Shown: piece by piece, positions 4,320 to 30,720 of the stretch
Layout: every line of letters begins with the position of its first letter
Position numbering within the stretch: the first letter of the stretch is position 1
From: Geotalea uraniireducens Rf4
GTDB lineage: Bacteria; Desulfobacterota; Desulfuromonadia; Geobacterales; Geobacteraceae
Direction of reading: 5' to 3'
Length of the DNA stretch: 32,000 nt
Assembly: GCF_000016745.1 (NCBI RefSeq)
Contig: NC_009483.1
Span: 2,760,001 to 2,792,000, forward strand
The notes under the pieces: generated by a model
Databases searched by the model: none
Told to the model about the DNA's origin: nothing
The model's input: only the letters and a program-made list of their open reading frames with translations
Program-made: the position numbers and the translations under genes

Positions 4320-4332
4320 GGAACCTCTATAG

Positions 4333-4404: not shown

Positions 4405-4406
4405 TA

Positions 4407-5792
4407 TCACTTGAGACCGGCGATATACGCCTTGATGCCGGCCAGTATGCCATCAGCGGTAATGTCCTGATAACGTGGATCCTTGAGCCGGCCTTCTTCG
4501 CGCTCATTACTTAAAAAAGCCGTTTCCACGAGGATGCTCGGCATGGTAGCCCCTACCAGGACATAAAACGGCCCCTGTTTTACCCCAAGGTTTTTAACAG
4601 AATATTGACCATTCACCTTGCTGGAAACGGCTTTCTGCACCTCTTCGGCAAGATGTGCGGAATCGTTCAGCTTGTAGTTCGCCATGAGATCAAAGAGCAC
4701 TGCCTGCAAGAGACTCACCTTTTCCAGGGATGTGCCATTTTCTTTGGCAGCAAGCTGGGCCGCTTTTTCGGTCTTGGCCAGGTTCAGATAGTACGTCTCG
4801 ATGCCGTTTGCGCTGCGATTGAGGGAAGCGTTGGCATGAACCGATACAAAGAGATCGGCGCCGACCTTGTTGGCAATAGCAGTCCGCTCCTGCAGCTCAA
4901 TAAATTCATCGGTAGATCTGGTTAATACAGCATCGATCCCCAGCTCTTCCTTCAGTTTGTGTGCCAGTTTGAGACCAATCTGAAGAACAACGTCCTTTTC
5001 CTTGGTTCCGCCGGCTCCAATCGCCCCCGGATCATGCCCGCCGTGCCCGGGATCGACGACAATCCGCCGTATCTTACCCGGCTTTACTTTCGCTTTCGCC
5101 TGAATTTTCTCCGCCACCGCTTCAATCCTGGCAGTCTCGACCAGCGGGGGGGACTCCTTGATACTTTCTTTAACGGCGGAGATCTCCGGCTTACGATCTC
5201 CTTTGACATCCACCATGATGCGGAAAGGATCGGAGAAGGTGAATACATTGTAGTCCTTGATGCTGTCCAGATCGAGCACAACCCGTACGACATCCGGCCG
5301 GTACTGGGCAATGCGCGCCGTCTTCAACAGACCATCGCCAATGGCCAGGTCTTTTACTCCCGGCCCTATCCTGGCGCCGTTGATATCCAGGTAGAGACGG
5401 GGAGGAACCGACGGCTCATTTTTGGGGGGCAGTTTATGATATTCGAATCCGGCCTCCCGGTCGAGGGTGACGGCAAGGCGGGAGTAGTCGGGATTGGACC
5501 AATGGCGCATCTCCTTGACTATTGCCCTGGATGCGGGCTCAACAGCCATGGCGGTTGCGGTTTTATGCGTAACGGTTGAAGGCGTTCGCGTCTCGGATCG
5601 GGTCTGCTTTTTCGCCGTTTGTTTCTTCTTCTCCTTTGGCTTTGCAGTGCCGGTTTTTTGTTTCTTTTTGGCGGCCCGCTCCCGCTTTTTCCCCTCCGTC
5701 TCTTGCTGCTCTCCCCATGCGATCTGCGAGCAAAACGCGGTGACGAGGATAATCCAGATTAAAACAACTAATTTTCGTCGCATCGGCGTCAA
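4407..5792 (-). CDS. N-acetylmuramoyl-L-alanine amidase (AMIN domain plus Amidase_3 domain)
   Basis: 461 aa with a signal/anchor sequence, a Lys-rich linker, an AMIN-like region and a catalytic region ([15 protein letters not shown] ... SVHANA). Its start overlaps the mutS stop by 4 nt. Confidence 0.85.
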
Positions 5793-8538: not shown

Positions 8539-10071
8539 TCAGGAATTGCGCAGGTTGAATTGCTTGATTTTGCGATACAGGGTGTTCCTGCCGATACCCA
8601 GGACTTTCGCCGTCTCAGTGATATTCCACCGGCAATGTTCCAGCGCTTTTTTGATGGTTTCCTCTTCCGTATCCTTGAGGCCTCGCTGGGCGGGAGGCAC
8701 GAGGCCTTTTGCGCGCATGACCGAGAGCAGGCTGGTTTCAAGGCCGTGCAGGGACTGGAGCATCTGTTTCAGTTCACCTGCACTCATTTTTCCCAGCGCA
8801 TCAGCCTTGGCATAATGCTCCAAGAAACTATCCGGGGAAAAAGGGATGTCCGGGTCCTGGTTGTCCCGGAGCGGTGACGACAGGGTTTTGGCAGAGTCGG
8901 CAGGGGTGTTCAGGAGTGTGCTCCCCAGGTGGTTGGGCATAATCGTATCGCCATTGCACATAACCACCGCACGTCTCATGACGTTGGCAAGCTCGCGAAT
9001 ATTGCCCGGCCAGCCGTAATCCCGCAAGAGGCGCAGGGCTCCCTGGGAAAGCCGCAAATCGGGATTGAGCAGTCGGACAAAGTGCTCCGCCAGCATTGGG
9101 ATGTCATCGGCGCGGGAGCGCAAGGGCGGGATTTCAAGCCGGACCACGTTAAGCCGATAGTAGAGATCCTCGCGGAAAGTTTTTTCGCGGATTGCTTCTT
9201 CCAGGTCGACGTTGGTTGCGGCGATCACCCTCACATCGGTTTTGATCGGCTTTTCACCGCCGACCCGCATGAATTCTCCAGTTTCGAGCACCCGCAGCAG
9301 CTTGACCTGGATCTGAGGGCTGGCATCGCCGATTTCGTCGAGCAACAAGGTGCCGCGGTTGGCCAGCTCGAATATGCCGCGGCGGGTCTGGCTTGCACCG
9401 GTGTAGGACCCCTTTTCGTGGCCGAAGAGTTCGCTTTCCAGAAGGTTTTCCGGCAGCGCCCCGCAGTTTACCGGGATGAATGCCTGGTCGGCGCGACCTG
9501 AGGCGGCGTGGATGAAGCGGGCCAGGACTTCCTTGCCGGTGCCGGTCTTCCCCTGGATCAGAACATTGATATTCTTGTTGGCGATTTTGAAGGCCAGGGA
9601 TACCAGGCGCCGCATACTCGGCGCACTGCCGACCTGGAAACCGACTGCCTGGGCCACCTCGGACCACTCCTCCTTGTCGTGGCGCCCTTGCAGGAGGTTG
9701 AAACCGTGGGTAGCGGCCCGTTCTATCAGGGTTTCGATTTCATTGATGTCGTCGAAAGGCTTTTCCAGATATTCGTAAGCGCCCAATTGCACCGCCGTGA
9801 CCGCCGTTTTGATGGTGCTGTAGCCGGTCATGAGGATGACTTCGCAGGCGGGCTGCCGGGCCTTGATCATTTGCAGCAAGGTCAGGCCGTCGGTGTCGGG
9901 CAGCTTCAGATCAACCATGGCCACGTTGAAACTGTTTTCTTCAAGCGCCAGCATCGCCTCCGGCTCGTTTGTCGCGGTGACGACAACGTAACCTTTTCTG
10001 GACAACAAGCGGCGGAAAAACGTGCAGACATCCGCCTCGTCGTCGATGATCAAAACCTGAATCTGGGACAT
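8539..10071 (-). CDS. sigma-54-dependent response regulator (REC, AAA+ and Fis-type HTH domains)
   Basis: The REC domain starts MSQIQVLIIDDE. Walker A is GKTGTGKE, the sigma54-contact loop is GHEKGSYTGA (a GAFTGA variant), and the C-terminal HTH is ETAKVLGIGRNTLYRKIKQ. The ORF extends to 10092, but a GGAGAG RBS sits 5 nt before the ATG at 10071. Confidence 0.9.
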   Translation of the reverse strand: MSQIQVLIIDDEADVCTFFRRLLSRKGYVVVTATNEPEAMLALEENSFNVAMVDLKLPDTDGLTLLQMIKARQPACEVILMTGYSTIKTAVTAVQLGAYEYLEKPFDDINEIETLIERAATHGFNLLQGRHDKEEWSEVAQAVGFQVGSAPSMRRLVSLAFKIANKNINVLIQGKTGTGKEVLARFIHAASGRADQAFIPVNCGALPENLLESELFGHEKGSYTGASQTRRGIFELANRGTLLLDEIGDASPQIQVKLLRVLETGEFMRVGGEKPIKTDVRVIAATNVDLEEAIREKTFREDLYYRLNVVRLEIPPLRSRADDIPMLAEHFVRLLNPDLRLSQGALRLLRDYGWPGNIRELANVMRRAVVMCNGDTIMPNHLGSTLLNTPADSAKTLSSPLRDNQDPDIPFSPDSFLEHYAKADALGKMSAGELKQMLQSLHGLETSLLSVMRAKGLVPPAQRGLKDTEEETIKKALEHCRWNITETAKVLGIGRNTLYRKIKQFNLRNS

Positions 10072-14864: not shown

Positions 14865-15038
14865 TTGAAATTTCATAATTCATCCTTCATACTTGCCGTA
14901 AACTCCTTGACAACCTCCTCTATGGGTGTATGAATGTTAGTAAATTTTATGTAGTACCCGGGAGGGGAGATGGGGTGCCGGAGCGCAGGTTCAGAGAGCC
15001 GCTTGGTCAGCGTGGAAGCTGATGGAGCGGCTTTTTTT
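14865..15038 (+). promoter_or_regulatory. promoter-leader-terminator module, copy 1, upstream of the CFI-box operon
   Basis: Three TTCAT direct repeats lie at 7-bp spacing (14872, 14879, 14886). TTGACA (14907-14912), a 16-nt spacer and TATGAAT (14929-14935) follow. A ~100-nt leader then ends in a terminator. The module is repeated at 17754-17934. Confidence 0.55.
14997..15038 (+). terminator. rho-independent terminator/attenuator inside leader copy 1
   Basis: AGCCGCU-UGG-UCAGC-guggaa-GCUGA-UGG-AGCGGCU followed by U7. Confidence 0.65.
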
Positions 15039-15171
15039 CTGGTCCAAGGTGGTGCCCTGGAAGCCTGACCCCGCTGGCCGCCCCTGTTTCGTGTCCCCGT
15101 CGGAGTAAAGCCTGCCAATGGAAAGATGGAAAAGAAGAAGATCCTTGAAGAAGGGGATGGGTGAATTCACC

Positions 15172-17013
15172 ATGTCTATGACTTTTAAATACATTAGCCG
15201 GTTTTTTGCGGCGCTAGCTGTTCTCCTCGTCGTTTCCGTCCCGAAAGCGCTCTGGGCGGAGGATCTGATCGTCGAGCATAACCCTACCGATCCCACCCAT
15301 TTCTCCTCCATCCAGGCGGCCATCGACCACGCCGCCATTATTTTGAGTAACCCGTCCTTGATCAACACCAATTTCCGCGTGATCGTCAAGGCCGATCCCG
15401 TTCCCTATACCGGACCCATCACGCCCATCAGCAACGTGCCGATCATCGGCACCAGTACCGCCGGAACCTTCATTTCCGGCATCGGAGCAGGAACGCTCAT
15501 CAGCTTGAGCAACGTCTCCTCGGTGGCGATCCAGAACTTTACCTTCCGGGGTGCCCTCATCGGGATTACCGTCGCGAACAGTTCAGCCATCGGCATCACT
15601 AACATCGTGTTTCAACTGGGCACAGCCGGCACTGCCGTTCAGGTACAGAACTCACCGGCTACCTCTATCATCAACAACACCTTTTTCGGCAACGGCACCG
15701 CCATCAGTACCGATTCGAACATCACCATCACCAATAACATCTTTTCCACCAACACCACGGCAATTTCGACCCAACCAACCCTGACGCAACTTTCCTATAA
15801 TGATTATTTCAACAACGGAACGAACGGAGTCACCAATCTGGACGCCCATTCCATCCCCAGCTCTCTGGTTGCGAATGCGAACCCCCTCTTTGTGAACGCG
15901 GGCAGTGACTTTCATCTGCAGCCCGGATCGCCCTGTATCAATGCCGGAAATCCTCTGTATCCCAATTCCTTCGACAGCACCACCTTCGACATGGGAGCCT
16001 ACGGCGGGCCGAACAGCGACATCCTGCTTGCCACGGTGACGGGCCTGGTTTCCTCGCTGACCACACCGTCAACCATTGCGCTCAGATGGAACCCAACCAG
16101 CAACAGCAAGGTGACAGCATACCGGGTCTACTATGGGACTTCCTCCCGGAATTACAACGGCACGCAGGCCGCCGAAGGACCTTCTCCATTGACGGTGCCA
16201 GTGGGAACCACCAGCGCGAACCTGAGCGGGCTCCCTCTCACGGGGCCGGCCGTACCGGCGGTTCCGACGCTCACCGCGACCGCTCCCCTGAACCAGGCCC
16301 TCCAACTCTCCTGGACCACCGTTTCCGGGGCGACGGGGTACCGGATTTTCTACAGCACCGCCACCTTCGATGCATCCTCGCTCCCCGCAACCTTCGTCGA
16401 TGTCGACGGCGGCACCGTGTCGTCCTTCCGGCTTTCCGGATTGACCAACGGCACGACCTATTTCGTGGCGGTCTCCGCCCTGGCACAGACCACGTTTTTC
16501 GCCGCGGTTACCGTCGTCATCAACAGCACCGTCGCTTCCAACCCCGGAAGCGCCAACGAAAGCTCCTTTTCGCAGGAGACCAGCCAGCGGGTCGGCCCGG
16601 TCCAGATGAGCGGCATATCGAACCTCTTGAGCGATTTCCCGGAGGCCATCGCCCCCTTTCCCAACCTCAAGAGCAAGGGGTGCTTCATTGCCACCGCAGC
16701 GTACGGTTTCTACTCGGCCCCGCAGGTGCAGGCGCTGCGCGACTTCAGGGACCGCTATCTCATGACCAACGCGCCCGGCAGGGCCTTCGTCGACTGGTAC
16801 TACCGTTACGGGCCGCGCGGCGCTCATTTCATCAATGCCCATCCCTGCCTCAAGCCGCTGGTCCGGATCGCGCTCTTCCCCCTGGTGTACGGCTCGATGC
16901 TGCTCCTGTACGCATCGGGCGGTGTCAAAATCGCCGTGCTGATCTGCGCGGCACTGGCGTCCGTCATTCTTGTGCAGAGAAAAAAGCTGCTGGCATTGGG
17001 AGGCACGCGTTGA
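15172..17013 (+). CDS. secreted surface protein with right-handed parallel beta-helix repeats, two fibronectin type III domains and a C-terminal [10 protein letters not shown] (CFI-box-type) anchor domain
   Basis: The signal peptide is [29 protein letters not shown]. PbH1-like repeats include [32 protein letters not shown]. The beta-helix C-cap is [16 protein letters not shown] ... FDMGAYGG. The FN3 domains include TAYRVYYG and TGYRIFYS ... TTYFVAVSA. The C-terminus reads [29 protein letters not shown]...[10 protein letters not shown]... followed by a TM helix. The ORF is open from 15118, and the start at 15172 was chosen on signal-peptide logic. Confidence 0.8.
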
Positions 17014-17678
17014 AGAGATTGTTACTGGCACTGGCGCTTCTGTTCATACCGGCCGTTGCCCTGGCCGCAGAGGGGAGCAGCGACCGTCCGCACTGGTCGC
17101 TGGAGCTGAAGGGAGGCGTCTTTTTCCCCAACCTGTCCCGCTGGTCGGATTTTTACGGCTCGAGTTTTACCTCGGAGTTCGGCGGCGCTCTGGCCTACAA
17201 GGTCAGGCGCGAGATCGAGGTGGGGATCGAAGGGACCTACGTGAGCGCCGACGGGAACGGGCAAGCGCCGCTGCATGCGCAGGTTGCGGGAGGGGGCCAG
17301 GTGGCAGCCGGACAGGTGAGCTACGAACTCTTTCCGCTCAACGTCTTCGTCCTCGCGCGCGGGGTCTTCAGCGAGGATCAGCCGCTGGTGCCCTATCTCG
17401 GTGGTGGGTGGACCAGGATGTTCTATCGGGAAGAGGTGAAAGGACAGGGGAAGGTGCAGGGCTCGACCAACGGCTTCCATGTCAGGGGGGGGATCCAGTT
17501 CCTGCTGGACCGTATCGATGCGGACGCAGCGAGAAATCTGGACCGCGACTACCATGTGCGCCACACTTATTTCTTCACCGAAGCGAAATACACTCGCGCC
17601 ACTGCCGACACCAATCCTTCCGGGTCCGTCAACCTTGGGGGTGTCAGTTATCTGGGTGGATTGCTCTTCGAGTTTTAA
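17010..17678 (+). CDS. small outer-membrane beta-barrel protein, translationally coupled to the upstream gene
   Basis: The TTG start at 17010 overlaps the upstream TGA (TTGA), with a GGGAGG RBS 6 nt upstream. The signal peptide is [22 protein letters not shown]. Alternating beta-strand patterns run to the C-terminal GGLLFEF. The 530-aa track ORF (16086-17678) is real only from 17010 on. Confidence 0.8.
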
Positions 17679-17753: not shown

Positions 17754-17934
17754 TTGAAATTTCATAATTCATCCTTCATACTTTTTTTCAATCTCCTTGA
17801 CGATGCCACCTCTCGGGGTGTATGAATGTGAGTAATTTTTTATGCATGTACCGGGGAGGGGCGATGGGATGCCAGAGTGCAGGTTCAAAAAGCCGTTTGG
17901 TCAGTGTGGAAGCTGATGGAGCGGCTTTTATTGT
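17754..17934 (+). promoter_or_regulatory. promoter-leader-terminator module, copy 2, with no downstream cargo gene
   Basis: It is near-identical to 14865-15038, including the TTCAT x3 repeats, TTGACG/TATGAAT and the terminator (17891-17934). The -35/-10 spacer is 2 nt longer and the U-tract is interrupted (UUUUAUUG). Confidence 0.5.
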
Positions 17935-18016: not shown

Positions 18017-18155
18017 GCATATAATATTAGATGCCAATTGGATAATAGAATAAATGAAAAAACAGGCAAAAGCATATAATATTAGATACCTTACAGGCAT
18101 ATAATACTAGATGCTGGCATATAGTATTATAAACAAGTATATAATAATAGATGCC
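18017..18155 (+). repeat. array of five imperfect 19-bp AT-rich quasi-palindromic direct repeats
   Basis: GCATATAATATTAGATGCC (18017), GCATATAATATTAGATACC (18072), GCATATAATACTAGATGCT (18097), GCATATAGTATTATAAACA (18117) and GTATATAATAATAGATGCC (18137). A TGCTCAA-n7-TTGAGCA hairpin follows at 18166-18186. Confidence 0.7.
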
Positions 18156-18234
18156 ACATGCTAACTGCTCAATAACACGTTGAGCAAATAATATAAAGAA
18201 ATTAGGATGTTACGCCACTTTATGAGGCTAACGA

Positions 18235-19410
18235 ATGACATTACAGCAGATCATAGCGCGTGGATACGAACAGAGAACAGCGAACAAGCCGTTGCCACCG
18301 TATATGTGGAAGGCCGCCGGACGAATCTCGGTTTGTCGGACGTCAACTCTTGGCGGCCACGTGCAGGCGTGCCCTGAGGGGCACGTTGAAAGGCACTGGT
18401 ACAACTCCTGCCGGCACCGCGCCTGTCCCGTCTGCAACTATACTGCCACCGAACGATGGCTTGACAGCCAGAAAGAACGAATCCTCAACTGCGAACATTT
18501 TCATGTTGTTTTCACGCTGGACAGTGCGCTTGATCGCCTCTGGCTCGTCAATGTCCGGGCCATGACCAACATTCTTTTCCAGTCGGCCCGCGACACGCTC
18601 TTTGAACTTTTGGGTGACGATAAATACCTGGGCGCCGAACCGGGCGTGATCATGGCGCGCCATACCTGGGGGCAGATGCTCGGCCTTCATCCGCATGTTC
18701 ACTGCCTGGTATCGGGGGGCGGCCTGACCCAGAGCGGTGAATGGCGCAGTGTCGCCAACGGCTATCTGCTACCGGTGCGGGTCGTGCGCTCCCTGTTCTG
18801 CGGCAAGTTCCTCGATGCAATTCGCCGCGGAGTTGAGCGGGCAGAGCTGACCGTGCCGGATGGCGAGCGACCGCAGCAGGTTTTGAACCTGCTCAACAAG
18901 CTCGGCCGCAAGAAGTGGAATGTCTGCATCCGGGAGCGCTACGCGCACGGCAACGGTGTCTTGACCTACCTCGGCCGGTACTTGCGCGGCGGAGCCATTT
19001 CGAACCGCCGAATCATTTCGTCCGACGAAGAGCAGGTGCGTTTCCGCTACAAGGATTATCGCGAAGAAAGTGAGAGCGGCGGCAAGAAGTGCAAAACGAT
19101 GGAGCTTAGCGTCAATGACTTTGTGCGCCGGGTGCTGCTGCATGTCCCGGAACCGGGCCACAAGGTGGTGCGTTCATACGGATTGTACGCGGGAAGCCGG
19201 CGCCAGGCCCTTGACCGCTGCCGGGAATTACTCGGGCAAGAACCGGTACAGGAGCCGAAGGCGCGCACATGGCAGGAATGCGTGGCGGGACTGGGAGAGA
19301 CAAACCCCGGCCAATGCCCGGTATGCGGCTCACGGCTGGTGCAACGGGAGGTGTTTCGTCCGGAGTTCAGGGGCGAGACAAGGAAGTTTCCAATGAAAGA
19401 GGCGGCATGA
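18235..19410 (+). CDS. IS91-family (HUH Y2, rolling-circle) transposase
   Basis: 391 aa with an N-terminal zinc-binding region (CRTSTLGGHVQACPEGHVERHWYNSCRHRACPVC) and HUH-like HFHVVFT ... HPHVHCLVSGGGL. I could not define the element ends. Confidence 0.85.
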   Translation: MTLQQIIARGYEQRTANKPLPPYMWKAAGRISVCRTSTLGGHVQACPEGHVERHWYNSCRHRACPVCNYTATERWLDSQKERILNCEHFHVVFTLDSALDRLWLVNVRAMTNILFQSARDTLFELLGDDKYLGAEPGVIMARHTWGQMLGLHPHVHCLVSGGGLTQSGEWRSVANGYLLPVRVVRSLFCGKFLDAIRRGVERAELTVPDGERPQQVLNLLNKLGRKKWNVCIRERYAHGNGVLTYLGRYLRGGAISNRRIISSDEEQVRFRYKDYREESESGGKKCKTMELSVNDFVRRVLLHVPEPGHKVVRSYGLYAGSRRQALDRCRELLGQEPVQEPKARTWQECVAGLGETNPGQCPVCGSRLVQREVFRPEFRGETRKFPMKEAA

Positions 19411-19624
19411 GCAGGCAGCAAGAAGTGACTGACGATCAGCAGCCGGTGATGACGCATGCCTTAAAGACAGGAAAAACGAAGCTTCTGGGAGAGTCAAAGG
19501 CAAATCACACCACCAAACCCGCCCAAGACAAGGAAGATTTCAGCGACGGCAACAATTTACTGACAAAAAAACCGTAAATCAGCTCTGGCGGTGACGAGAA
19601 AACTCCATAGACCACAAAGAAAAA

Positions 19625-19718
19625 GCTCAACACTCGGATGGAACAGACGCGCCGATCAAGATCGCCGCTAAAGGCATGTTTTGGGGCGGCTTGCTGTTCA
19701 TCCTCTAAAACGTTGGGC
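19625..19718 (+). other. attC-like recombination site 1
   Basis: R'' is GCTCAAC (19625-19631) and R' is GTTGGGC (19712-19718). The inner arms pair with a 1-nt bulge: GGATGGAACAG against the reverse complement GGATGAACAG. Confidence 0.6.
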
Positions 19719-20229
19719 GAGGAATTTGAATTATGAATAAATTAATTGCTGTTTGGAAACAGCTTGTTGTCTGGACTAAAAACGGTAAAAATTTCTGGCT
19801 AGTTATCCTGCCATTCGGAGGGGTCGTTGCTTCGATAATACTCTTAAGAGGGTACCCAAAAGGGCTGAACATCTTAAAGCTAGAGGGAATATTAGTTGAA
19901 ATAGCTGGACTTGCTACAGTGGTATTGTCTCTTTCGAGGGAGAACAAGAAATATAACCAAAACGGATACCTCAAGTCGTTTATCGTTTGGGTTTCGGACG
20001 TTAAGTACATATTGTTTCCTCGCAACATTACCATACAAGTTGACAGTTGTTTGAGCGGTATCTCAAGTATTGGTGCAGGAATAGTAACCGGAACTCTTAA
20101 TTTCGAGAATATTGATCAGAAAGTAGAATACCTGCTCCAAAAGGTAATGATATTAGAAAAGTCTATGAATGAGGGTTTTCATAAAATCGAAACTGTGAAG
20201 TCAGAAATAAAGGCGGAGTTAGCCTCTCT

Positions 20230-21571
20230 GGCTCTGCAACGAATCAAGTGGGTAGAGGGAATAGCGACTTTAGGTTGAGCTTGCCTGCAACCAGATAAGC
20301 CATGCAGATCAAGTTGTCAGGATTCCGATAGCCTCGTGCCCGAGTTTTGGCTGATTGAATTAGGCTGTTGATGCCCTCAATGAAGCCGCTAGTCAGGCCG
20401 CTTTCAAAATGTGCCAGAATGCCATCCCAATGCTCTTTTACAGATTCGGCCATGTTCTTGATGAGTTGGATTGAGCTTGCGGCGGCTTTCCGATGCCATT
20501 TGGTCAACAGGGTTTCTGCCTCCGTTCGGCTTGAAGCAAAATAGACGTTCTGAAGGTTCAGCTTGTGCATGTAAGCTTCCGTACTCCTTAAGCTTTGACT
20601 GGTGATAATGGCATCCAGGCGCTGTTCCTCTTCCGGTGTCAGGTTCTCTGGATTTTTGAGGAACAGGTTTCTGCTCTTTTTCAGGATTTCAGGAAATAAC
20701 CTGGCTTCTTGAGCCCTTATCTTACTAAGCTTATCGTTCATAAGCTTGATGACGTGGAATTTATCGAAGGTGACCACGGCATGGGGCAACTGCTCTTTGA
20801 CACCCTTTATGAATGCCTTGGACATGTCAATAGCAGCGTCTGTGATGCTATCAGGATCGCCGCCATGTGACTTAAGGTCCGCGACGAAGCTCTTGACTGT
20901 TTCGTTGTCCTTTCCCGTCGTGCCGAACAAGAGCTTATGCATGTCGAGGTCGAAGAAGAAGGTGACGAATTTCTCGTCATGACTGCGCCCGGCAAAGGTT
21001 TCATCCGCACCGACCCTCTTCACCTCGGAGAAGTCTTCTGCGGCCCTTGCCTTCTCGACATAGGATTGAATCAACCGCCATAGACGGGTATCGGTAACGG
21101 CAAACAGCCTGCTCATGACCTTCACCGGCAAATCACGAGCCATGGTCATGGCCAGGGCCTCAAACAGCAGCGTAAATCCTGAGCCTGCGCGAGCCCAGGG
21201 TACCTGGACCAACTTCACGCCGCAGTCGCTGTTAGGGCACTTTACCCGTGGAACACGCGCATGAAGGTAGGCTTCGTACTGGAAGAAATTCAGATGCCGC
21301 CACTCTTTCTCCGTGGTGTCATGGACTGGTGACAACGTTCCGCAGACCGGACAGGGAAAGGTGGCTCCCCGCTGGAAGTCGATGGTTATGTCCAAACGAC
21401 TTGACTTCTTGTTGAAGTCAACAGAGGTAACCTTCCACGGGATGGCAATTCCAAGAGCAGCACCAAAAAGATCTTCAGGATTCATAGCGATTACTAACCT
21501 CCAGGCTGAGTGATGGTGGCCTATCTTACATCAACCCGGCCCAGGCTACCCACTCAATTCGTCGAGGAGCC
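20230..21571 (-). mobile_element. ISL3-family insertion sequence (1342 bp) with an 8-bp target-site duplication
   Basis: The terminal IRs are GGCTCTGCAACGAATCAAGTGGGTAG (left) and the reverse complement of CTACCCACTCAATTCGTCGAGGAGCC (right). The TSD GCCTCTCT lies at 20222-20229 and 21572-21579. Confidence 0.9.
20244..21485 (-). CDS. ISL3-family transposase
   Basis: 413 aa with an N-terminal zinc-finger region (FPCPVCG...RVKCPNSDCG) and a DDE domain, sitting between the IRs above. Confidence 0.9.
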   Translation of the reverse strand: MNPEDLFGAALGIAIPWKVTSVDFNKKSSRLDITIDFQRGATFPCPVCGTLSPVHDTTEKEWRHLNFFQYEAYLHARVPRVKCPNSDCGVKLVQVPWARAGSGFTLLFEALAMTMARDLPVKVMSRLFAVTDTRLWRLIQSYVEKARAAEDFSEVKRVGADETFAGRSHDEKFVTFFFDLDMHKLLFGTTGKDNETVKSFVADLKSHGGDPDSITDAAIDMSKAFIKGVKEQLPHAVVTFDKFHVIKLMNDKLSKIRAQEARLFPEILKKSRNLFLKNPENLTPEEEQRLDAIITSQSLRSTEAYMHKLNLQNVYFASSRTEAETLLTKWHRKAAASSIQLIKNMAESVKEHWDGILAHFESGLTSGFIEGINSLIQSAKTRARGYRNPDNLICMAYLVAGKLNLKSLFPLPT

Positions 21572-21753
21572 GCCTCTCTCAAATCGAATTTAGAAACGGA
21601 AATTACCAAAGTTAAGAATGACATTAAAGATAAAGCTACTATAGACTATTGTCTACTTGTATCAGGCTCAATATTAACAGCGATAGGAATGATTATTACC
21701 AATCTTCCTGATTATTATTTCAATCTTCTAAATTTGCATTCTTAGAATAGGAT

Positions 21754-21818
21754 GCCCAACCACTCGGCGGCACGCGGGCTTCGCTACGCTTCGCCGGTGC
21801 GCCTCGACACCGTTGATA
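21754..21818 (+). other. attC-like recombination site 2
   Basis: R'' GCCCAAC (21754-21760) matches RYYYAAC. R' GTTGATA (21812-21818) is a partial match to GTTRRRY. The arms are imperfectly complementary. The 5' part GCCCAACCACTCGG resembles GCTCAACACTCGG of site 1, and the site starts 9 nt after the cassette-1 stop. Confidence 0.55.
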
Positions 21819-21835
21819 TGGCTAAGGGGGTCAAA

Positions 21836-22069
21836 ATGAAGTTCTGGGCAATGACCTGCAAAGTACTCGGGTATATCTGACTGGTGTTGGCTGGACTCCT
21901 GATCTTGGTAGGCATCGTGGAGGTCTGGATGAAGGAGGGATTTTCCGGAGTTCAAAACCTCCTGAGCCCGTTTAACGTGGCGAACTATATCGTGACGATA
22001 ATTACGCTGGCTCCCGGAATTGGCTTGCTGATGCTTTCCGAAAAACTACAAAACAAGGCCAAGCCTTAG
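21836..22069 (+). pseudogene. small membrane protein cassette ORF with an in-frame TGA
   Basis: The ATG at 21836 has an AAGGGGG RBS 6 nt upstream and gives MKFWAMTCKVLGYI. A TGA at 21878-21880 follows, and the same frame continues LVLAGLLILVGIVEVWMKEGFSGVQNLLSPFNVANYIVTIITLAPGIGLLMLSEKLQNKAKP. The track ORF (21884, GTG start) has no RBS. Confidence 0.45.
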
Positions 22070-22084
22070 CCCTCCCATCAAGTG

Positions 22085-22155
22085 ACTTAACATTAAGCTG
22101 CGAGGGGGAAAGGTTTCAAGCTTAGTGCCCCCATCGCCTGCTTGACTTGTTGAGT
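22085..22155 (+). other. attC-like recombination site 3
   Basis: R'' is ACTTAAC (22085-22091) and R' is GTTGAGT (22149-22155); both fit the consensus. The arms TTAAGCtGCGAgGGGG and CCCCCatCGCctGCTTGA pair with bulges. Confidence 0.6.
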
Positions 22156-22159
22156 GTTT

Positions 22160-22184
22160 AAACGTACATTATAAATGTACGTTT
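22160..22184. promoter_or_regulatory. perfect 11-3-11 palindrome, likely the antitoxin operator overlapping the TA promoter
   Basis: AAACGTACATT-ata-AATGTACGTTT. A putative -35 TTGACT (22142-22147), a 17-nt spacer and a -10 TACATT (22165-22170) place the -10 inside the left arm. Confidence 0.55.
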
Positions 22185-22205
22185 GACCACCAAATGGAGG
22201 TTGCC

Positions 22206-22445
22206 ATGATTGAGGTGAATATTACTGAATTTCGCAATCATCTGCCCGAATATCTCGGGCAGGTAAAGAAGGGGGAAGATATTTTTCTCACCTCACGGGG
22301 CAAGGTTGTTGCCAAGGTTACGCCCGTAACTGATGAACGGGCTGCTGCTCGTGAGGCGCTAATGCTATTGCGCGGGACATGCCGCATTGGTGACGTGATT
22401 TCCCCGCTTGATGAAAAGTGGGAGGCTAGTGATGCTGGTTCTTGA
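22206..22445 (+). CDS. Phd/YefM-family antitoxin
   Basis: MIEVNITEFRNHLPEYLGQVKKGEDIFLTSRGKVVAKVTPV... with a GGAGG RBS 7 nt before the ATG at 22206. It overlaps the toxin gene. Confidence 0.8.
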   Translation: MIEVNITEFRNHLPEYLGQVKKGEDIFLTSRGKVVAKVTPVTDERAAAREALMLLRGTCRIGDVISPLDEKWEASDAGS

Positions 22446-22827
22446 CACCTGCGCTCTCATTTATGATGCCCTAAGCCCGAACAGCCTCAGCCGGAAAGCG
22501 GTAAAAGCAATCACGAAGGGTGATGAAGATGGGCTGTTGGCATGCAGCGATATTTCACTCTGGGAAATCGCCATGCTGATCAGCAAGGGGCGGCTTGATC
22601 CTGGGACGGACGCCGTCACGTTCCTGCGACTCCTTCATTCCGCCCGACAGATCCGGGTGTTCCCCATCACTCCCGAAATAGCAGCTACCAGCGCCAGCTC
22701 ATCCCTCTTTGTCCATGGTGATCCAGCCGACCGTATCATTGCAGCCACAGCCATTGTTCATAAAGCGGAACTGGTAACTTGTGACGGACATCTGTCGGCA
22801 GTCAAGGGATTGCGAGTCATCTGGTGA
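22432..22827 (+). CDS. vapC: PIN-domain toxin, VapC family
   Basis: MLVLDTCALIYD... with acidic PIN residues (D5, E in SLWEIA, D in GDPADRIIAATA, D in TCDGH). The start overlaps the antitoxin end by 14 nt. Confidence 0.8.
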   Translation: MLVLDTCALIYDALSPNSLSRKAVKAITKGDEDGLLACSDISLWEIAMLISKGRLDPGTDAVTFLRLLHSARQIRVFPITPEIAATSASSSLFVHGDPADRIIAATAIVHKAELVTCDGHLSAVKGLRVIW

Positions 22828-22925
22828 TGAATTCTGTCTGTTTGGATGAAGTAAGGGACTAAGTTAAAGGGTTACATCTCCATTCCCCACTTTTTGCAAA
22901 CAATTATCGTGAAAACAGCGAAGGT

Positions 22926-22994
22926 GCCAATCACCGCTCGGACCGTGTCCGGGCATAAACCGCCCGGCAGGTCAAGCCAGCCCCGCCGTTAACA
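22926..22994 (+). other. degenerate attC-like site 4
   Basis: GCCAATCACCGCTCGG resembles GCCCAACCACTCGG of site 2. The arms CGGACCGTGTCCGGGC and GCCCGGCAGGTC pair. R' is GTTAACA (22988-22994). The R'' core is not canonical. Confidence 0.35.
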
Positions 22995-23054: not shown

Positions 23055-24122
23055 ATGAATTTCGACTGCATACCACGCGAAGACCTGCATGGCATCCTCT
23101 GCCACATGCCGAAAGCAGAACTGCATATTCACATCGAAGGCTCACTGGAGCCGGAACTGATCTTTGAACTGGCAACTCGGAACCGGATTCAACTCCCCTA
23201 CCCGACCATAGATGAACTGCGTGCTGCCTATGCCTTTACGGATCTGCAGAGCTTTCTGGACATCTACTATGCCGGGGCCAGCGTGCTGCAAAAAGAAGCG
23301 GATTTCTTCGACATGGCCTGGGCTTACCTGAAGCGAGCCAAAGCCGAAAATGTAGTACACGCAGAAATTTTCTTTGATCCCCAGACACATACGGCCAGAG
23401 GAATTCCATTTGAAACGGTAATCAACGGACTGGATCGGGCAATCCGTCGCGGCCGTGAAGAACTGGGACTGAGTGCCTCGCTGATACTCTGTTTCCTGCG
23501 CCACCTGAGTGAAGAGGACGCTTTTGCGGCGCTGGAAGATGCTCTGCCGTTCCGCGACAAGTTCATCGGGGTCGGCCTTGACAGCAGCGAGCGCGGAAAT
23601 CCGCCGGAGAAATTTACCAGGGTATTTGCACGCTGCCGGGAGCTGGGACTGCGACTGGTGGCCCATGCCGGAGAAGAAGGTTCAGCCGAATACATAAGCC
23701 ATTCCCTTGACCTGCTGAAAGCGGAAAGGATCGACCATGGTGTGCACTGCCTGGATGATCCGAAGCTTGTCGCACGACTGGTACAGCAACGCATACCATT
23801 GACAGTATGCCCCCTTTCCAACGTAAAACTTTGCGTGTTTCCGAGTCTTTCCGCTCACAACATCGGCAAATTGCTGGCTGCCGGCATTGCAGCAACTATT
23901 AATTCAGACGATCCGGCCTATTTCGGTGGATACCTGAACCGGAATTACACCGCTACATTCGCAGCACTGCCGGGGCTTGGGGCAAAAGAGGCTTACCAGC
24001 TGGCTCGCAACAGTTTTGAGGCCAGTTTTGTGAATGAAAACATCAAGGAAGGATGGATCAGGGAGCTTGATGAATTCTTTACGCATTATAGGGAAAATGA
24101 GGGAAAATGGCTTCCACTTTGA
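23055..24122 (+). CDS. add: adenosine/adenine deaminase (Add family)
   Basis: 355 aa with metal-binding motifs LHIHIEGS, HAGE and NSDDPAYFGGY, and an AGGAGG RBS. Confidence 0.85.
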   Translation: MNFDCIPREDLHGILCHMPKAELHIHIEGSLEPELIFELATRNRIQLPYPTIDELRAAYAFTDLQSFLDIYYAGASVLQKEADFFDMAWAYLKRAKAENVVHAEIFFDPQTHTARGIPFETVINGLDRAIRRGREELGLSASLILCFLRHLSEEDAFAALEDALPFRDKFIGVGLDSSERGNPPEKFTRVFARCRELGLRLVAHAGEEGSAEYISHSLDLLKAERIDHGVHCLDDPKLVARLVQQRIPLTVCPLSNVKLCVFPSLSAHNIGKLLAAGIAATINSDDPAYFGGYLNRNYTATFAALPGLGAKEAYQLARNSFEASFVNENIKEGWIRELDEFFTHYRENEGKWLPL

Positions 24123-24193: not shown

Positions 24194-24436
24194 GTGGCAA
24201 CGATGAGAGGGCAGGTCATGGTTCGTCTCTTCAACTTCCTGCTGCGGGTGTTGCGCGGGTTCAAACGCAACCAGGGGCTCTTGTTGTCCGGCGCTCTTGC
24301 CTATTATACCCAGTTGTCAATTGTGCCCATGTCGATCCTTGCCCTCATTGTGCTGACGCATTTCATAGAAGAGCAGCAGTTGATTCACACCTTGTCAACG
24401 TACCTGGAAATGGTGATCCCCGGCTATAGAACTTGA
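24194..24436 (+). pseudogene. N-terminal fragment of a YihY/BrkB-family membrane protein
   Basis: 80 aa including GFKRNQGLLLSGALAYYTQLSIVPMSILAL, a typical YihY N-terminus. Family members are roughly 300 aa, so this copy is truncated. Confidence 0.6.
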
Positions 24437-24519: not shown

Positions 24520-24711
24520 TCAGCTCTCCTCATCTTTGCCCCAGAAGAATATCATCTGCGGGGTTGTGGCGCTATGCTCATTAATGAGCTGCTGGGTGCT
24601 GACAAGTTCCCATCCAACCTTGGCCATGCTATGCAGGTGATCTTGTAAATCAAGTGCCAGGAGATCATTTACAGGGTAATGCTTGGTTGTGAATGTATAT
24701 GCTTTCGCCAT
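24520..24711 (-). CDS. DUF4177-like domain protein (distal half of a gene split by the MITE)
   Basis: MAKAYTFTTKHYPVNDLLALDLQDHLHSMAKVGWELVSTQQL... It is in frame with 24975-25113 once the MITE and one TSD are removed. Confidence 0.6.
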   Translation of the reverse strand: MAKAYTFTTKHYPVNDLLALDLQDHLHSMAKVGWELVSTQQLINEHSATTPQMIFFWGKDEES

Positions 24712-24746: not shown

Positions 24747-24965
24747 CAGCGTTGTCCGGTTTGGTTTTTGCTTACGTCCCGTAGGGACAGAATACTGGTA
24801 GCCGGGGAATTCATTCCCCGGTCATCCAGGCGAAATATCATCACGTCACGTACGTGACGTGGGGAAATATAGCATCTCATCCGGGGGATGAATCCCCCGG
24901 CTACATTCAAACGCCCCTAATGGGGCTTAACAACCTTGATGCACAAACCAAACCGGACAACGCTG
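24747..24965. mobile_element. 219-bp MITE with IRs matching the IS4-family element at 26551-27885; 9-bp TSD
   Basis: The IRs are CAGCGTTGTCCGGTTTGGTTTTTGC and its reverse complement GCACAAACCAAACCGGACAACGCTG. The TSD CAGAAAAAT lies at 24738-24746 and 24966-24974. There is no ORF, and the interior is packed with palindromes such as CACGTCACGTACGTGACGTG. Confidence 0.85.
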
Positions 24966-25113
24966 CAGAAAAATAGAAATAACCGCTCTCTTTGATGACA
25001 TTAACCATCCTCCACCCGTCTTGTGCCATCTGGTTCAGATGCTGCACCATTCCTTCACGGATGACTTGGTTGGTAGGAGGTTCGTGCAGCGTAATGGTGT
25101 ATTCTTTAGCCAT
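24907..25113 (-). pseudogene. DUF4177-like domain protein (proximal half, C-terminus replaced by MITE-encoded residues)
   Basis: MAKEYTITLHEPPTNQVIREGMVQHLNQMAQDGWRMVNVIKESGYFYF is followed by SAALSGLVCASRLLSPIRGV* read from the MITE IR. An AAGGAG RBS lies 7 nt before the ATG at 25113. Confidence 0.6.
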
Positions 25114-25174
25114 TGTCATTCTCCTTAGTGCCCGGACACTCCAACCCTATGGAGCTGCACTCGAAGAAGGCACT

Positions 25175-25357: not shown

Positions 25358-25650
25358 AAAGAACACCTCTTAATTAGTTTATCACCTTACTACACAATAC
25401 ATTATAGCATACAAAGGCTTGAGCACTCGTTTTCCCCTCAAAGCGATAAGGTATATATCCCATTAGAAAGACCTGAGGCCGTAATGGAATCTTCTACGGG
25501 AATGTCAAACACGGCCGTATTTGTTCCCTTGACGGGATTTATAATGGTGGTAAGCTTTTTGTGATTATTATTTTCTAACAATTACTTTCCGACAAAGCCA
25601 AACCCTTCGCGAGGAGGGGGCGGAAAGCGGCGGGTCTTCGCGACGAAGAT

Positions 25651-25700
25651 GGCCGAGCTGCCGAGGGACGGGTCCTTCAGGTGGGCTCGGCCTTTTTATT
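25651..25700 (+). terminator. orphan rho-independent terminator
   Basis: GGCCGAGC ... (inner GAGGGA/UCCUUC) ... GCTCGGCC followed by TTTTTATTT. No plus-strand CDS lies upstream. Confidence 0.55.
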
Positions 25701-26423: not shown

Positions 26424-26550
26424 CTAACCCCGATAAACAGAATAAGTGCGTTAACGAAGTTATTTTCTGTCAGCCCCAATAAACGGGATAAGTACGTTAA
26501 AAATCATTTCTGCAAAAAGCTCAGAAAATAACTTCTAACTTACTAAAGGA
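26424..26550. repeat. repeat element copy 1, with an internal partial duplication, shared with 28801-28886
   Basis: It shares CTAACCCyGATAAACAGrATAAGTGCGTTAACGAAGyTATTTTCTG ... AAAAAGCkCAGAAAATmACTTCTAACTTACTAAAGGA with copy 2. It contains a perfect 14-bp stem, GAAGTTATTTTCTG/CAGAAAATAACTTC. Confidence 0.7.
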
Positions 26551-27885
26551 CAGCATTGTCCGGTTTGGTCTTTGCAAGGTTCTTTGAGAATGTAAAAAAG
26601 TTGTAAAATCAGCGTTATACCGCATTATTTGCTTGACTTTGAGTAAAAAAACGGTGGTCCGCACTCGTAACTATCCAATATTACAGGAGTTACGATATGC
26701 GACCGTTCAAACGACTGAAACAAAGACGAAAATCACGCGCTTTCAAATTGCTTCTTACCCCGATTTTTGAGAGATTCAAGTCAGATAATGAACTTGAATC
26801 CAGGGGGTATCGCCCGTTGCAAATGACTTTCGATGATCAGCTAAAAGCCCTGATCTTTTATCACTTGGAAGAGTTCTCTTCCGGGAGCGAACTTCTCCAG
26901 GCGCTGGATCAGGATGACTTCGCCAAGGAATGTGTTGCTCCCCCCAAGGGAATCAAAAAGAGCTCTTTCTTTGAGGCAATCAACAACCGTGGTCTTGAAC
27001 AGCTTTCCGAGGTATTCGGGCATCTTGTCAAGCAAGCAGGCAGAGTGCTTCCCGATGAATATGCTCACCTTGGCAATCTGGTATCCATAGACGGTTCTTT
27101 GATAGATGCTGTTCTATCTATGGAATGGGCAGATTACCGAAGCGGCTCTAAGAAGGCCAAGGCCCATATCGGCTTCGATATCAACCGTGGTATTCCAAGG
27201 AAGATATTCCTGACCGACGGTAAAGAGGGTGAGCGCCCCTTTGTTGATAAGATCATCGACAAAGGCGAAACCGGTGTCATGGATCGTGGGTATCAGTCTC
27301 ATAATCACTTTGACCAGTGGCAGGCCGCCGAGAAGTTTTTTGTCTGCCGTATCAGGGAGAATACACACAAAACCGTCATCAGAGAGAATGCCGTAAATCC
27401 TGACAGTATTGTCTTCTATGACCAGATAGTACTTCTCGGCACCAAAGGTATAAACCAGACTGAGAAAGAGCTGCGCCTTGTTGGTTACCGTATTGACGGC
27501 AAGGACTACTGGGTAGCAACCAACAGATACGACCTGACGGCTGAAGAAGTGGCCCAGGTTTATAAACTGCGCTGGAACATAGAGACCTTCTTCGGTTGGT
27601 GGAAACGCCACCTAAAGGTGTATCACCTGATTGCCAGAAGCGAATATGGTCTCATGGTTCAAATACTTGGTGGTCTCATCACCTATCTGCTGCTAGCCAT
27701 CTATTGCCGTGAGCAGCACCAGGAGCCAGTCAGCATTAGCAGGGTACGAGAATTACGCAATCAGATTGCAAATGAAGCAGCAGCCGAACAGCAGAGCCGT
27801 CGCACAAGAATACAAGGTAACTCAAACAAAATTAGACAGTTGAAACGTAAGAAACGTCGTGCAAAAACCTAACCGGAAGTTACTG
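26551..27885 (+). mobile_element. IS4-family insertion sequence (1335 bp) with a 9-bp TSD
   Basis: IRL is CAGCATTGTCCGGTTTGGTCTTTGCA. IRR is the reverse complement of TGCAAAAACCTAACCGGAAGTTACTG. The TSD ACTAAAGGA lies at 26542-26550 and 27886-27894. Confidence 0.85.
26697..27872 (+). CDS. IS4-family DDE transposase
   Basis: 391 aa with the Y-(2)-R-(3)-E-(6)-K signature in YKLRWNIETFFGWWK and DDE residues in the SIDGS and VMDRGY contexts. Confidence 0.85.
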   Translation: MRPFKRLKQRRKSRAFKLLLTPIFERFKSDNELESRGYRPLQMTFDDQLKALIFYHLEEFSSGSELLQALDQDDFAKECVAPPKGIKKSSFFEAINNRGLEQLSEVFGHLVKQAGRVLPDEYAHLGNLVSIDGSLIDAVLSMEWADYRSGSKKAKAHIGFDINRGIPRKIFLTDGKEGERPFVDKIIDKGETGVMDRGYQSHNHFDQWQAAEKFFVCRIRENTHKTVIRENAVNPDSIVFYDQIVLLGTKGINQTEKELRLVGYRIDGKDYWVATNRYDLTAEEVAQVYKLRWNIETFFGWWKRHLKVYHLIARSEYGLMVQILGGLITYLLLAIYCREQHQEPVSISRVRELRNQIANEAAAEQQSRRTRIQGNSNKIRQLKRKKRRAKT

Positions 27886-28145: not shown

Positions 28146-28649
28146 ATGAAAAAAATAGTACTTTCATTCTTGTTGACGGTTGTTTTTGCTGTGCCCGCTT
28201 TTTCAGAGATGAAGGATATGCCCATGAGGGAGCATAGGGAAGGATATGGGCAGATGATGGAAATGGGAAATATGGACAAGATGGGCGATATGATGGGCAT
28301 GTGCATCGAACATGCAGATAAGATGGGGCTTACCGATGATCAGATCATGAAAATGAAGCCATTACATCGCGAAATGCAAAAAAAGCATGCCCGATTCAAA
28401 GCGGACCTGAAGATTGCAGAGATCGAACTTATGGAAATCATGGAAGTGAAAGATTTTGACCTGGAGAAGGCCAGCTCTGCAGTTAAAAAAATTGAAGAGA
28501 TAAAAACAGCCCATCATTTGGAAATGTTAAAAGCCATGAAAGAAATGCGGACTATTTTGACGGACGAACAGTTTAAAAAAATGAAGAAGATGATGTTCAT
28601 GAAGATGGGGGAGAAAAAACCGGCAAAGAGGATGATGAAGAAACAATAA
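28146..28649 (+). CDS. periplasmic Spy/CpxP-family (LTxxQ) protein with a Met-rich N-terminal region
   Basis: It has a signal peptide, two LTxxQ motifs (LTDDQ and LTDEQ), a Met-rich segment (GQMMEMGNMDKMGDMMGM) and an AGGAGG RBS. Confidence 0.75.
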   Translation: MKKIVLSFLLTVVFAVPAFSEMKDMPMREHREGYGQMMEMGNMDKMGDMMGMCIEHADKMGLTDDQIMKMKPLHREMQKKHARFKADLKIAEIELMEIMEVKDFDLEKASSAVKKIEEIKTAHHLEMLKAMKEMRTILTDEQFKKMKKMMFMKMGEKKPAKRMMKKQ

Positions 28650-28800: not shown

Positions 28801-28886
28801 CTAACCCTGATAAACAGGATAAGTGCGTTAACGAAGCTATTTTCTGCCAAAAAAGCGCAGAAAATCACTTCTAACTTACTAAAGGA
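28801..28886. repeat. repeat element copy 2
   Basis: See 26424-26550. Here its right end overlaps the stop codon of the minus-strand lmo0937-like gene. Confidence 0.7.
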
Positions 28887-29028
28887 CCTTTCGCCCTTGA
28901 ATGATGCGTACCAGTACCACTATGATAGCAATTACGAGCAGAATATGGATCAGACCGCCCATGGTATATGAAGTAACCATACCTAACAGCCACAGCACTA
29001 TCAGGACCACGCAGATTGTCCACAGCAT
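28879..29028 (-). CDS. lmo0937-family small membrane protein (49 aa, below the ORF-track cutoff)
   Basis: The reverse strand has a GGGAGGA RBS, then ATG and MLWTICVVLIVLWLLGMVTSYTMGGLIHILLVIAIIVVLVRIIQGRKVL*. Confidence 0.8.
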   Translation of the reverse strand: MLWTICVVLIVLWLLGMVTSYTMGGLIHILLVIAIIVVLVRIIQGRKVL

Positions 29029-30476: not shown

Positions 30477-30526
30477 AAAAAAAAGCCGGGTTGCCGAATA
30501 TCGTCTGATATTTCGGCAACCCGGCT
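30477..30526 (-). terminator. strong rho-independent terminator
   Basis: The minus strand reads AGCCGGGTTGCCGAAATAT-cagacg-ATATTCGGCAACCCGGCT (one bulged base) followed by T8. Confidence 0.8.
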
Positions 30527-30720
30527 GTCTGGCTTGAGACCCTTTAGGCTTTCCGCCCCATCCTCACGGATGGTTTAGTATTATCGTCTACCAACTGCAC
30601 GTGCTCATCTGTATTTCGTAACGCGGTACTGTTCTTACCAAAGAACCGCGCCGGATGTCAATGAAAAACACATTACACCCTCCCCCCACCCCCTCCCATC
30701 AAGGGAGTGGAGCTTTAAAG

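Follow-up and report, generated by a model that had tools for sequence, protein, structure and literature searches.

Cassette arrays without an integrase gene are described as clusters of attC sites lacking integron integrase (CALIN; PMC4889954; PMC9024848), and integrase-mediated insertion of cassettes at non-att genomic sites, termed attG, is put forward in bioRxiv 10.1101/2022.09.11.507474. In the IntegronFinder 2.0 table (PMC9024848, supplementary file 5), Geotalea (Geobacter) uraniireducens Rf4 is listed with a single In0, that is, an integron integrase gene (intI) without cassettes; of the two Geobacter sulfurreducens strains there, PCA has a complete integron, in which a single attC is counted, and KN400 has an In0. 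The small number of attC sites tabulated for the listed Geobacter genomes fits the idea that attC sites of a Geobacter type are under-detected. The subject of this report is a 32-kb stretch of the G. uraniireducens Rf4 chromosome (GCF_000016745.1; hereafter the window), for which a preliminary description made from the DNA letters had proposed a CALIN of four attC sites next to an IS91-family element. The analysis presented here indicates that positions 18017–21818 of the window probably hold a short integron-type array, composed of an attI-like site and two co-oriented cassettes, with no adjacent integrase gene and with decay downstream.

Results

Integron crossover takes place between G and TT of GTTRRRY, the 3' box (R') of an attC site. 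An integrated cassette thus starts with six bases that are the partner of its own 5' box (R''), and this provides a model-free check of proposed cassettes that can rescue sites missed by detection models. This boundary rule was checked on cassettes 1 and 2 of the window and on those carried by two metagenomic Logan contigs with differing neighbour genes, L186 (four cassettes) and L187 (one cassette). The R'' of a cassette and the R' at its own start were complementary at 7/7 Watson–Crick positions in six of the seven cassettes and at 6/7 in the seventh, that of L187, as against 3–6/7 for pairing of R'' with the physically adjacent R'. Four box sequences were represented among the paired cassettes (GAGC/GCTC, GGGC/GCCC, ATGC/GCAT and GAAA/TTTC), and the complementarity constitutes a covariation across 0.6–2.1 kb, with a chance probability of about (1/16)^6 by our own estimate. 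This covariation appears to be the strongest evidence for integron-type cassettes at the locus.

In the mechanism proposed for the array, the folded bottom strand of each attC would be recognized by an integron integrase whose gene lies at another place in the genome, and would be cut by it between G and TT of the 3' box, leaving TTRRRY at the head of each cassette as the partner of its own 5' box. Cassette 1 would carry the IS91-family transposase gene and end in site 1, and cassette 2 would carry a gene for a 220-aa membrane protein, later split by an ISL3-family insertion sequence (IS), and end in site 2. Downstream the array would have decayed, with a frameshifted open reading frame (ORF), no valid attC past site 2, and an abutting phd-vapC pair. 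Bottom strands rebuilt with the cassette's own start are predicted to form a full R box and a helix with an unpaired spacer between them, and the predicted folds of site 1, the L187 site and site L186a contain a single extrahelical base on the 3' arm.

Scoring of the sites relied on attC covariance models built from canonical sites as substitutes for IntegronFinder's own model. Class 1 arrays on plasmids were located by tblastn with IntI1, and 13 class 1 attC sites taken from them, aligned to the known structure, gave model R1. R1 produced 108 matches in 73 IntI-bearing loci, all 108 on the strand predicted by the orientation of intI, and is therefore specific; it is also too narrow, as held-out arr-3 and dfrA1 sites were missed, and its sole match in the window was site 3 on the − strand with 7.8 bits. 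The 108 matches, corresponding to 76 unique sites, were the input of a broader model, R2, which was run with filters off over the window, L186 and L187. Unrelated genomic loci totalling 1.38 Mb served as background, and the highest R2 score in them was 17.8 bits.

Site 1 (19625–19718, 94 bp, + strand; GCTCAAC..GTTGGGC) was the top R2 match, with 24.3 bits (E 7.5e-4) and a full-length alignment exact to the base. It is made up of R'' GCTCAAC, a 5-nt spacer, a 3-bp helix, an extra G at position 16, a 6-bp helix, a loop, a 9-nt 3' spacer and R' GTTGGGC, its final 6 nt being part of cassette 2. With its end reconstituted, the bottom strand is predicted to fold (−17.2 kcal/mol) so that an unpaired spacer separates an R box from a bulged helix. 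Site 1 is an attC, beyond chance. Matches 2 and 3 of R2 were the orthologous attC sites of L186 and L187. The 76 canonical sites all have a 5' spacer of 5 nt, the extra base at position 16 and a 3' spacer of 5–6 nt. By sequence reading, site 1, site 2 and the orthologous L186 and L187 sites likewise have the extra base at top-strand position 16, and site 1 and the two orthologous sites displayed the attC architecture in every respect apart from the length of the 3' spacer.

Cassette 2 (19713–21812, + strand), as delimited by homology breakpoints and boxes, carries a gene for an AT-rich predicted membrane protein of 220 aa and unknown function, present as an interrupted ORF (19733–20229 joined to 21580–21745, + strand) whose left part reads as a truncated ORF of 181 aa (19733–20278, + strand), 100% identical to a G. 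uraniireducens protein. The interruption is an ISL3-family IS (20230–21571, 1342 bp, − strand), recognized by imperfect terminal inverted repeats and by the Pfam families DDE_Tnp_ISL3, HTH_Tnp_ISL3 and Zn_ribbon_ISL3. Its transposase gene lies at 20244–21485 (− strand), and the element is flanked by an 8-bp target duplication, GCCTCTCT, at 20222–20229 and 21572–21579. When the element is taken out, the 220-aa ORF is restored in frame and stops 8 nt upstream of site 2. The cassette-sized intervals of the preliminary description were confirmed: the 2100 bp from site 1 to site 2 amount to 750 bp without the ISL3 element and its duplication, and the intervals from site 2 to site 3 and from site 3 to site 4 measure 337 and 839 bp.

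Site 2 (21754–21818, 65 bp, + strand; GCCCAAC..GTTGATA) comprises R'' GCCCAAC, the spacer CACTC, a helix GGC, an extra G, a helix GCAC, a loop, an 8-nt 3' spacer and R' GTTGATA; its minimum-energy predicted fold is an alternative helix. Evidence for this site is comparative. Homologues of the 220-aa protein share 88, 84, 73 and about 46–48% amino-acid identity with it, the 84% homologue being encoded on L187 and the 73% homologue on L186. Blastn homology to L186 and L187 begins at 19712, the G of the site 1 GTTGGGC, and ends at 21773–21777 within site 2, and the flanks of the cassette 2 copies are unrelated among the window, L186 and L187. In each copy of the 220-aa gene an attC-like site follows 8–11 nt past the stop codon (GCCCAAC..GTTGATA in the window, GCCCAAC..GTTATGC in L187 and GCTCAAC..GTTGGGC in L186), and site 2 is 80% identical to the attC of a different L186 cassette (6533–6592). 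The comparison, and not the model score, indicates that site 2 is an attC beyond chance. Cassette 2 itself is mobile, judging by the presence of the gene and its attC in different contexts with homology that ends at the cassette boundaries.

In a rival account, AAC and GTT happen to flank palindromes that arose by chance or that terminate transcription, and there is no cassette system behind the four proposed sites. The folding energies of the sites as DNA, on either strand, would agree with this, as they were not significant (z −1.5 to +0.5), and so would a relaxed hand-written architecture scan, which is far too permissive and returned more than 20 bulged AAC...GTT hairpins in the window. 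The same holds for the scores of sites 2, 3 and 4 with the canonical model (1.6–5.4 bits, + strand) and for the lack of a CALIN for Rf4 in the IntegronFinder 2.0 table. However, chance does not account for a score of 24.3 bits at site 1, where 1.38 Mb of background gave at most 17.8 bits, for homology breakpoints falling exactly at G/TT in three independent contexts, or for pairing of R'' with the R' of the cassette start at all seven positions in six of the seven cassettes with four different sequences. For sites 1 and 2 this account is contradicted, and for the locus as a whole we regard it as highly improbable; it is the best description of site 4 and a plausible one of site 3. A tighter geometry pattern matched only sites 1 and 2 in the window, with 0.08–0.11 hits per window; this pattern was derived from the sites themselves and is descriptive only. 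In Rfam, no match to any of the four proposed sites was found. The preliminary description had named two outcomes that would speak against its proposal. Regarding the first, sub-threshold attC scores, three of the four sites lie below threshold with the canonical model and site 1 lies above it. As for the second, a generic dispersed repeat, a repeat search of the window found no repeat family containing the proposed sites, which differ in sequence and length; they are not copies of a dispersed repeat such as a repetitive extragenic palindrome (REP) or a MITE (a miniature transposable element with inverted repeats).

Upstream of cassette 1 lies an attI-like region (18017–18185, + strand), defined by 18-mer palindromes and a simple site. 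The 18-nt palindrome GCATATAATATTAGATGC is present in four copies, at 18017, 18072, 18097 and 18137, with a degenerate fifth at 18117; within the window, for which 0.01 chance matches are expected, it occurs only at 18017–18154. The palindromes are followed by the simple site GCTCAAT-AACAC-GTTGAGC, whose GTTGAGC (18179–18185) begins 24 nt past the last copy, and in which the crossover would be at G/TT, 18179/18180. L186 contains two copies of GCATATAATATTAGATGC, then 23 nt including GGTCAAT, then the GTTGAGC that opens its first cassette, and L187 has GGTCAAA-TACGA-GTTGAGC in the equivalent position. A search of viral contigs returned six matches to the 18-mer, all isolated and uninformative. 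From the position at the head of the array, the inverted-repeat simple site and the upstream repeats conserved in L186, with intI not adjacent, we take 18017–18185 to be a putative attI site. The earlier statement that the window contains no attI is thus doubtful.

Cassette 1 (18180–19712, 1533 bp, + strand) is bounded by GTTGAGC and site 1, and its start GTTGAGC is complementary to its own R'' GCTCAAC at 7/7 positions. It contains an IS91-family Y2 transposase gene (18235–19410, + strand; Pfam Y2_Tnp 2e-66, Zn_Tnp_IS91 4e-25), the stop codon of which is overlapped (ATGA) by an ORF of 56 aa (19407–19577, + strand) that was called as a gene in L189 and L190 and stops 47 nt before site 1. The transposase gene is placed within the first cassette because the attI-like site lies upstream of it and site 1 downstream, and it appears to be bounded like a cassette; in the preliminary description it had occupied the place expected of intI and attI. 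The protein is about 26–30% identical to the other IS91-like proteins compared, and an exact look-up retrieved the same locus only, with no second copy that would define IS ends.

IS91-family genes were also seen in other integron loci. In a betaproteobacterial chromosomal integron (L097 1364–3377; L099 1347–3360), an IS91-family transposase gene lies between a cassette ORF and an attC, in a cassette array where a tyrosine-recombinase gene precedes it; a further locus, L098, has one extra cassette (8904–9248) relative to L097. In a metagenomic class 1 integron (L108), a 1685-bp IS91-family element (3365–5049) is inserted at a CAAG target at the 3' end of aadA1, with TTTCCTATACGT at one of its ends and a GC-rich hairpin at the other. 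ISCR1 adjoins the 3' conserved segment (3'-CS) in five of the plasmid loci examined.

The hairpins of the window could alternatively be read as ori and ter ends of the IS91-family rolling-circle element, or as products of its one-ended transposition, with the HUH transposase moving the segments. In favor of this reading, 215 nt separate the end of the IS91-family gene from site 1; a weak oriIS-like motif, CTCCATAGACC with CAAAG directly after it, is found about 12 nt before site 1 and is similar to the L108 insertion at its TTTCCTATACGT/CAAG end; and IS91-like elements recur beside or inside integron arrays (ISCR1; L097/L099). Yet sites of this type, with identical breakpoints, occur in L186 and L187, which have no IS91-family gene, the junctions are G/TTRRRY and not the CAAG/GAAC target of the L108 insertion, and the pairing rule between R'' and R' is specific to attC recombination. 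In addition, the 49 nt that precede the transposase gene contain no ter-like GC hairpin. Movement of these segments by an IS91-type transposase is, on balance, very unlikely.

Past site 2, the integron-type array gives way to a remnant segment (21813–22137, + strand). It contains the left half of the site 3 palindrome and a small membrane ORF, the 61-aa ORF, which appears to be frameshifted: an ATG at 21836, preceded by a strong ribosome-binding site, starts 14 codons, and the continuation at 21884–22069 is in another frame. The remnant has no homologue among the loci collected in this analysis, and the small ORFs gave no Pfam match. Site 3 (22085–22155, 71 bp, no strand assigned; ACTTAAC..GTTGAGT), an imperfect palindrome, starts 15 nt after the ORF stop; its R2 scores are 1.6 bits (+ strand) and 9.8 bits (− strand). 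Its R'' pairs with the supposed cassette start GTTGATA at 4/7 positions, where the boundary rule fails.

The right arm of site 3 (22138–22155) forms part of the promoter of a phd-vapC toxin–antitoxin (TA) module (22138–22828, + strand; Pfam PhdYeFM_antitox and PIN), with phd at 22206–22445 (+ strand; PhdYeFM_antitox) and vapC at 22432–22827 (+ strand; PIN). A consensus scan placed the promoter TTGACT-17-TACATT at 22142–22170 (+ strand), with an operator palindrome alongside. Close homologues of phd-vapC in L191, L192/L193 and L194 share 90–94% amino-acid and 84–89% DNA identity with the module, and no attC was found at them. The DNA homology starts at 22138 in every context, 11 nt left of the site 3 GTTGAGT, and ends at the vapC stop codon; the shared stretch includes the promoter with its −35 box and the operator palindrome. 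A junction at 22149/22150 would therefore cut the promoter. These boundaries, which differ from sites 3 and 4, indicate that phd-vapC is probably a self-contained autonomous module and not a cassette, and site 3 may at best be a relic attC and is not supported as a cassette junction. Reading site 3 as a − strand attC with phd-vapC as an inverted cassette was rejected, there being no matching ACTCAAC-type box downstream of vapC. Site 4 (22926–22994, 69 bp, + strand; GCCAATC..GTTAACA), a GC-rich hairpin between vapC and an adenosine deaminase gene, has no AAC in its 5' box, reached 5.4 bits with R2 with four non-standard pairs, and lies in a region common to none of the TA homologues; as an attC it is not supported, and on its sequence it would be a hairpin only.

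These results bear on the fuller version of the preliminary proposal, a CALIN of four sites in which site 3 and a decayed site 4 delimit two further cassettes, the third holding the 61-aa ORF and the fourth phd-vapC. Site 3 does present a 20-bp imperfect palindrome with RYYYAAC/GTTRRRY ends that pair mutually at 6/7 Watson–Crick positions, and the 5' part of site 4, CAATCACCGCTCGG, is loosely like that of site 2. TA modules are common in chromosomal integrons. Their occurrence there is covered in PMC13108822. Set against this are the TA homology, which in three attC-free contexts begins 11 nt left of the junction and includes the −35 box, and the 4/7 match of the site 3 R'' with the cassette start, the opposite of the pattern in every validated cassette. 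The low scores of site 3 (1.6 bits, + strand) and site 4 (5.4 bits) and the lack of an ACTCAAC-type box downstream of vapC point the same way, and we consider the four-site array unlikely. All four strings proposed as attC sites lie exactly where they had been reported; attC status is supported for sites 1 and 2 and not for site 3, in view of the TA promoter and the boundary rule, nor for the decayed fourth site, which has no AAC box, scores 5.4 bits and lacks comparative support. The sites had also been said to begin shortly after the stops of short ORFs; the distances are 8 nt for site 2, 15 nt for site 3 and 47 nt for site 1. Among the cassette contents first suggested, the unknown AT-rich membrane protein stays in cassette 2 and the Phd/VapC pair falls outside the array.

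With regard to the integrase, tblastn with IntI1 on the window gave a sole match, at 739–1626 (− strand), and no intI, as had been anticipated. The matching gene is xerD: its product scores 382.6 bits with TIGR02225, above the cut-off, and 157 with the integron integrase model TIGR02249, for which the cut-off is 265. XerD is the only tyrosine recombinase in the window, and intI next to attI and an array, the mark of a complete integron, was not found at the locus.

Several observations weigh against the integron-type array favored here. Site 2 scores just 3.4 bits with the canonical R2, which is at noise level. Sites of the Geobacteraceae type have a 3' spacer of 8–9 nt, a 2–3-nt insertion relative to the 76 canonical sites in R2, to which their low model scores are due; this comparison of spacers is biased, because the canonical set was gathered with a model that penalizes such insertions. 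The IntegronFinder 2.0 table (PMC9024848, supplementary file 5) has no CALIN for Rf4, one significant site being insufficient for such a call. L186 and L187, on which the comparative evidence draws, are short metagenomic contigs. Assignment of the attI site draws on resemblance and on one other locus. There is no intI in the window or adjoining the related arrays on L186 and L187, and we therefore infer the acting recombinase; the array may or may not still be active. Lastly, given the possible oriIS-like motif near site 1, the IS91-family gene could be a true (ISCR-like) IS that replaced earlier cargo, and not cassette cargo. What rescues sites 1 and 2 is the comparative evidence and not their model scores.

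The setting of the array and other features of the window can be summarized as follows. Housekeeping genes fill the left third of the window (xerD, glnD, an amidase gene, mutS and a two-component system), and from about 17.7 kb on the sequence is variable and rich in ISs. A direct duplication of about 180 bp (14865–15038 and 17754–17932, 86–100% identity) flanks a NosD/fn3 protein operon (15118–17678); each copy has a promoter-like site and, at its end, a terminator-like hairpin, and the sequence suggests that the duplicated segment may be a small RNA or a leader. The repeats are probably not the Chunjie MITE described for Rf4, as no terminal inverted repeats were apparent on reading the sequence. 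Downstream of site 4, the adenosine deaminase gene (23055–24122), whose identity Pfam confirms, has its best matches in Burkholderiales, at ≤70% identity among the matches listed, and is followed by a fragment of 80 aa of a BrkB-like membrane protein (24194–24436); both may be acquired or decayed DNA of the same variable region. Two near-threshold, divergent matches to Acido-Lenti-1 RNA (24775–24821, − strand, and 24881–24927, + strand; 32.8 and 36.2 bits, gathering score 37) lie between paralogous small − strand ORFs (24520–24711 and 24907–25119), which is unexpected in a Geobacter genome. Aptamers of the c-di-GMP-I-GGC riboswitch, of Geobacter type, are located at 25588–25666 (+ strand) and 30511–30588 (− strand), one scoring 66.3 bits (gathering score 59) and the other 47.1, below gathering; the two make up an inverted repeat of 39 nt with 4.9 kb between its arms. 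Direct repeats of 38–49 nt with 92–95% identity (26424–26551 and 28801–28887) enclose an IS4-family gene (26697–27872) and a Spy-like chaperone gene (28146–28649).

Discussion

The results describe a real cassette array that appears to escape the standard detection model, in a genome for which the published table shows only an empty integrase. Since the array was missed by standard detection, the integron content of lineages of the Geobacter type, and possibly of others with unusual spacing, may be undercounted. A broader conjecture is that Geobacteraceae possess attC sites of a lineage-specific geometry, with an 8–9-nt 3' spacer, that are mostly missed by canonical models, that the integrases reported as In0 in Geobacter genomes serve distant small arrays with their own attI-like site (18-mer palindromes plus GTTGAGC), and that an IS91-type gene travels as a cassette. 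We put this forward tentatively and think it rather doubtful as a whole. If it were true, an IS91-type gene travelling as a cassette would provide a natural route to ISCR-like fusions of two mobility systems. The IS91-family gene bounded like a cassette is in any case a small, concrete link between integrons and rolling-circle elements, a link that to our knowledge has so far been known mainly from clinical ISCR1 structures. The understanding of how integrons work is unchanged by these findings.

Arrays related to that of the window differ in content. The L186 array lies between a glpD-like gene and hisG, and the L187 array between ftsK and a PEPCK gene. One L186 cassette (3708–5654) is of a defence type. 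It encodes two proteins, one of 363 aa whose function is not known and one with a TIR domain that matches the candidate defence family PDC-S35 (1.8e-104), and is followed by a very short, 33-nt attC-like remnant, GCATAAC..GTTGAAA. Cargo of this sort, typical of cassettes, counts in favor of the integron-type array.

Compared with known systems, the locus shares with CALIN the co-oriented attC sites bounding promoterless cassettes, the lack of intI nearby, the unknown contents and the interruptions by ISs. It departs from them in having one site only that is significant with the canonical model, in the attI-like site apparently retained at the head of the array, and in a 3' spacer of 8–9 nt versus 5–6 nt. 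It works like a CALIN and falls outside the formal definition (at least two model-detected attC sites within the clustering distance, with no intI nearby), as only site 1 is significant with canonical models, for which reason it is missing from the published table. What stands of the CALIN idea is an integron-type array without an integrase in the window; what does not is the number of sites, two being supported, and the formal designation.

The locus also resembles a sedentary chromosomal integron without its integrase, in that an attI-like head is followed by cassettes and that cassette content varies, with four cassettes in L186, one in L187 and two in Rf4. Unlike in such integrons, none of the three loci has intI next to it, the In0 that is the only integron element listed for Rf4 lies elsewhere, and the array is very short and partly decayed. 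Integrase-mediated insertion at attG sites would explain small groups of cassettes between housekeeping genes far from intI, as in L186 and L187. However, the window and L186 share the 18-mer repeats and the inverted-repeat simple site, which look like a dedicated attI and not like the minimal GTT secondary site of that account.

With complex class 1 integrons carrying ISCR1, the locus has in common a physical link between a cassette array and a rolling-circle transposase gene of the IS91 family and, as with ISCR1, a ter-type left end that is apparently absent. In contrast to ISCR1, which lies beyond the 3' conserved segment, the Rf4 gene is situated between the attI-like GTTGAGC and its own attC, and is bounded like a cassette. 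Three features of the locus are noteworthy: a 3' spacer that exceeds the canonical length, an attI-like head that has been kept, and an IS91-family gene with the boundaries of a cassette.

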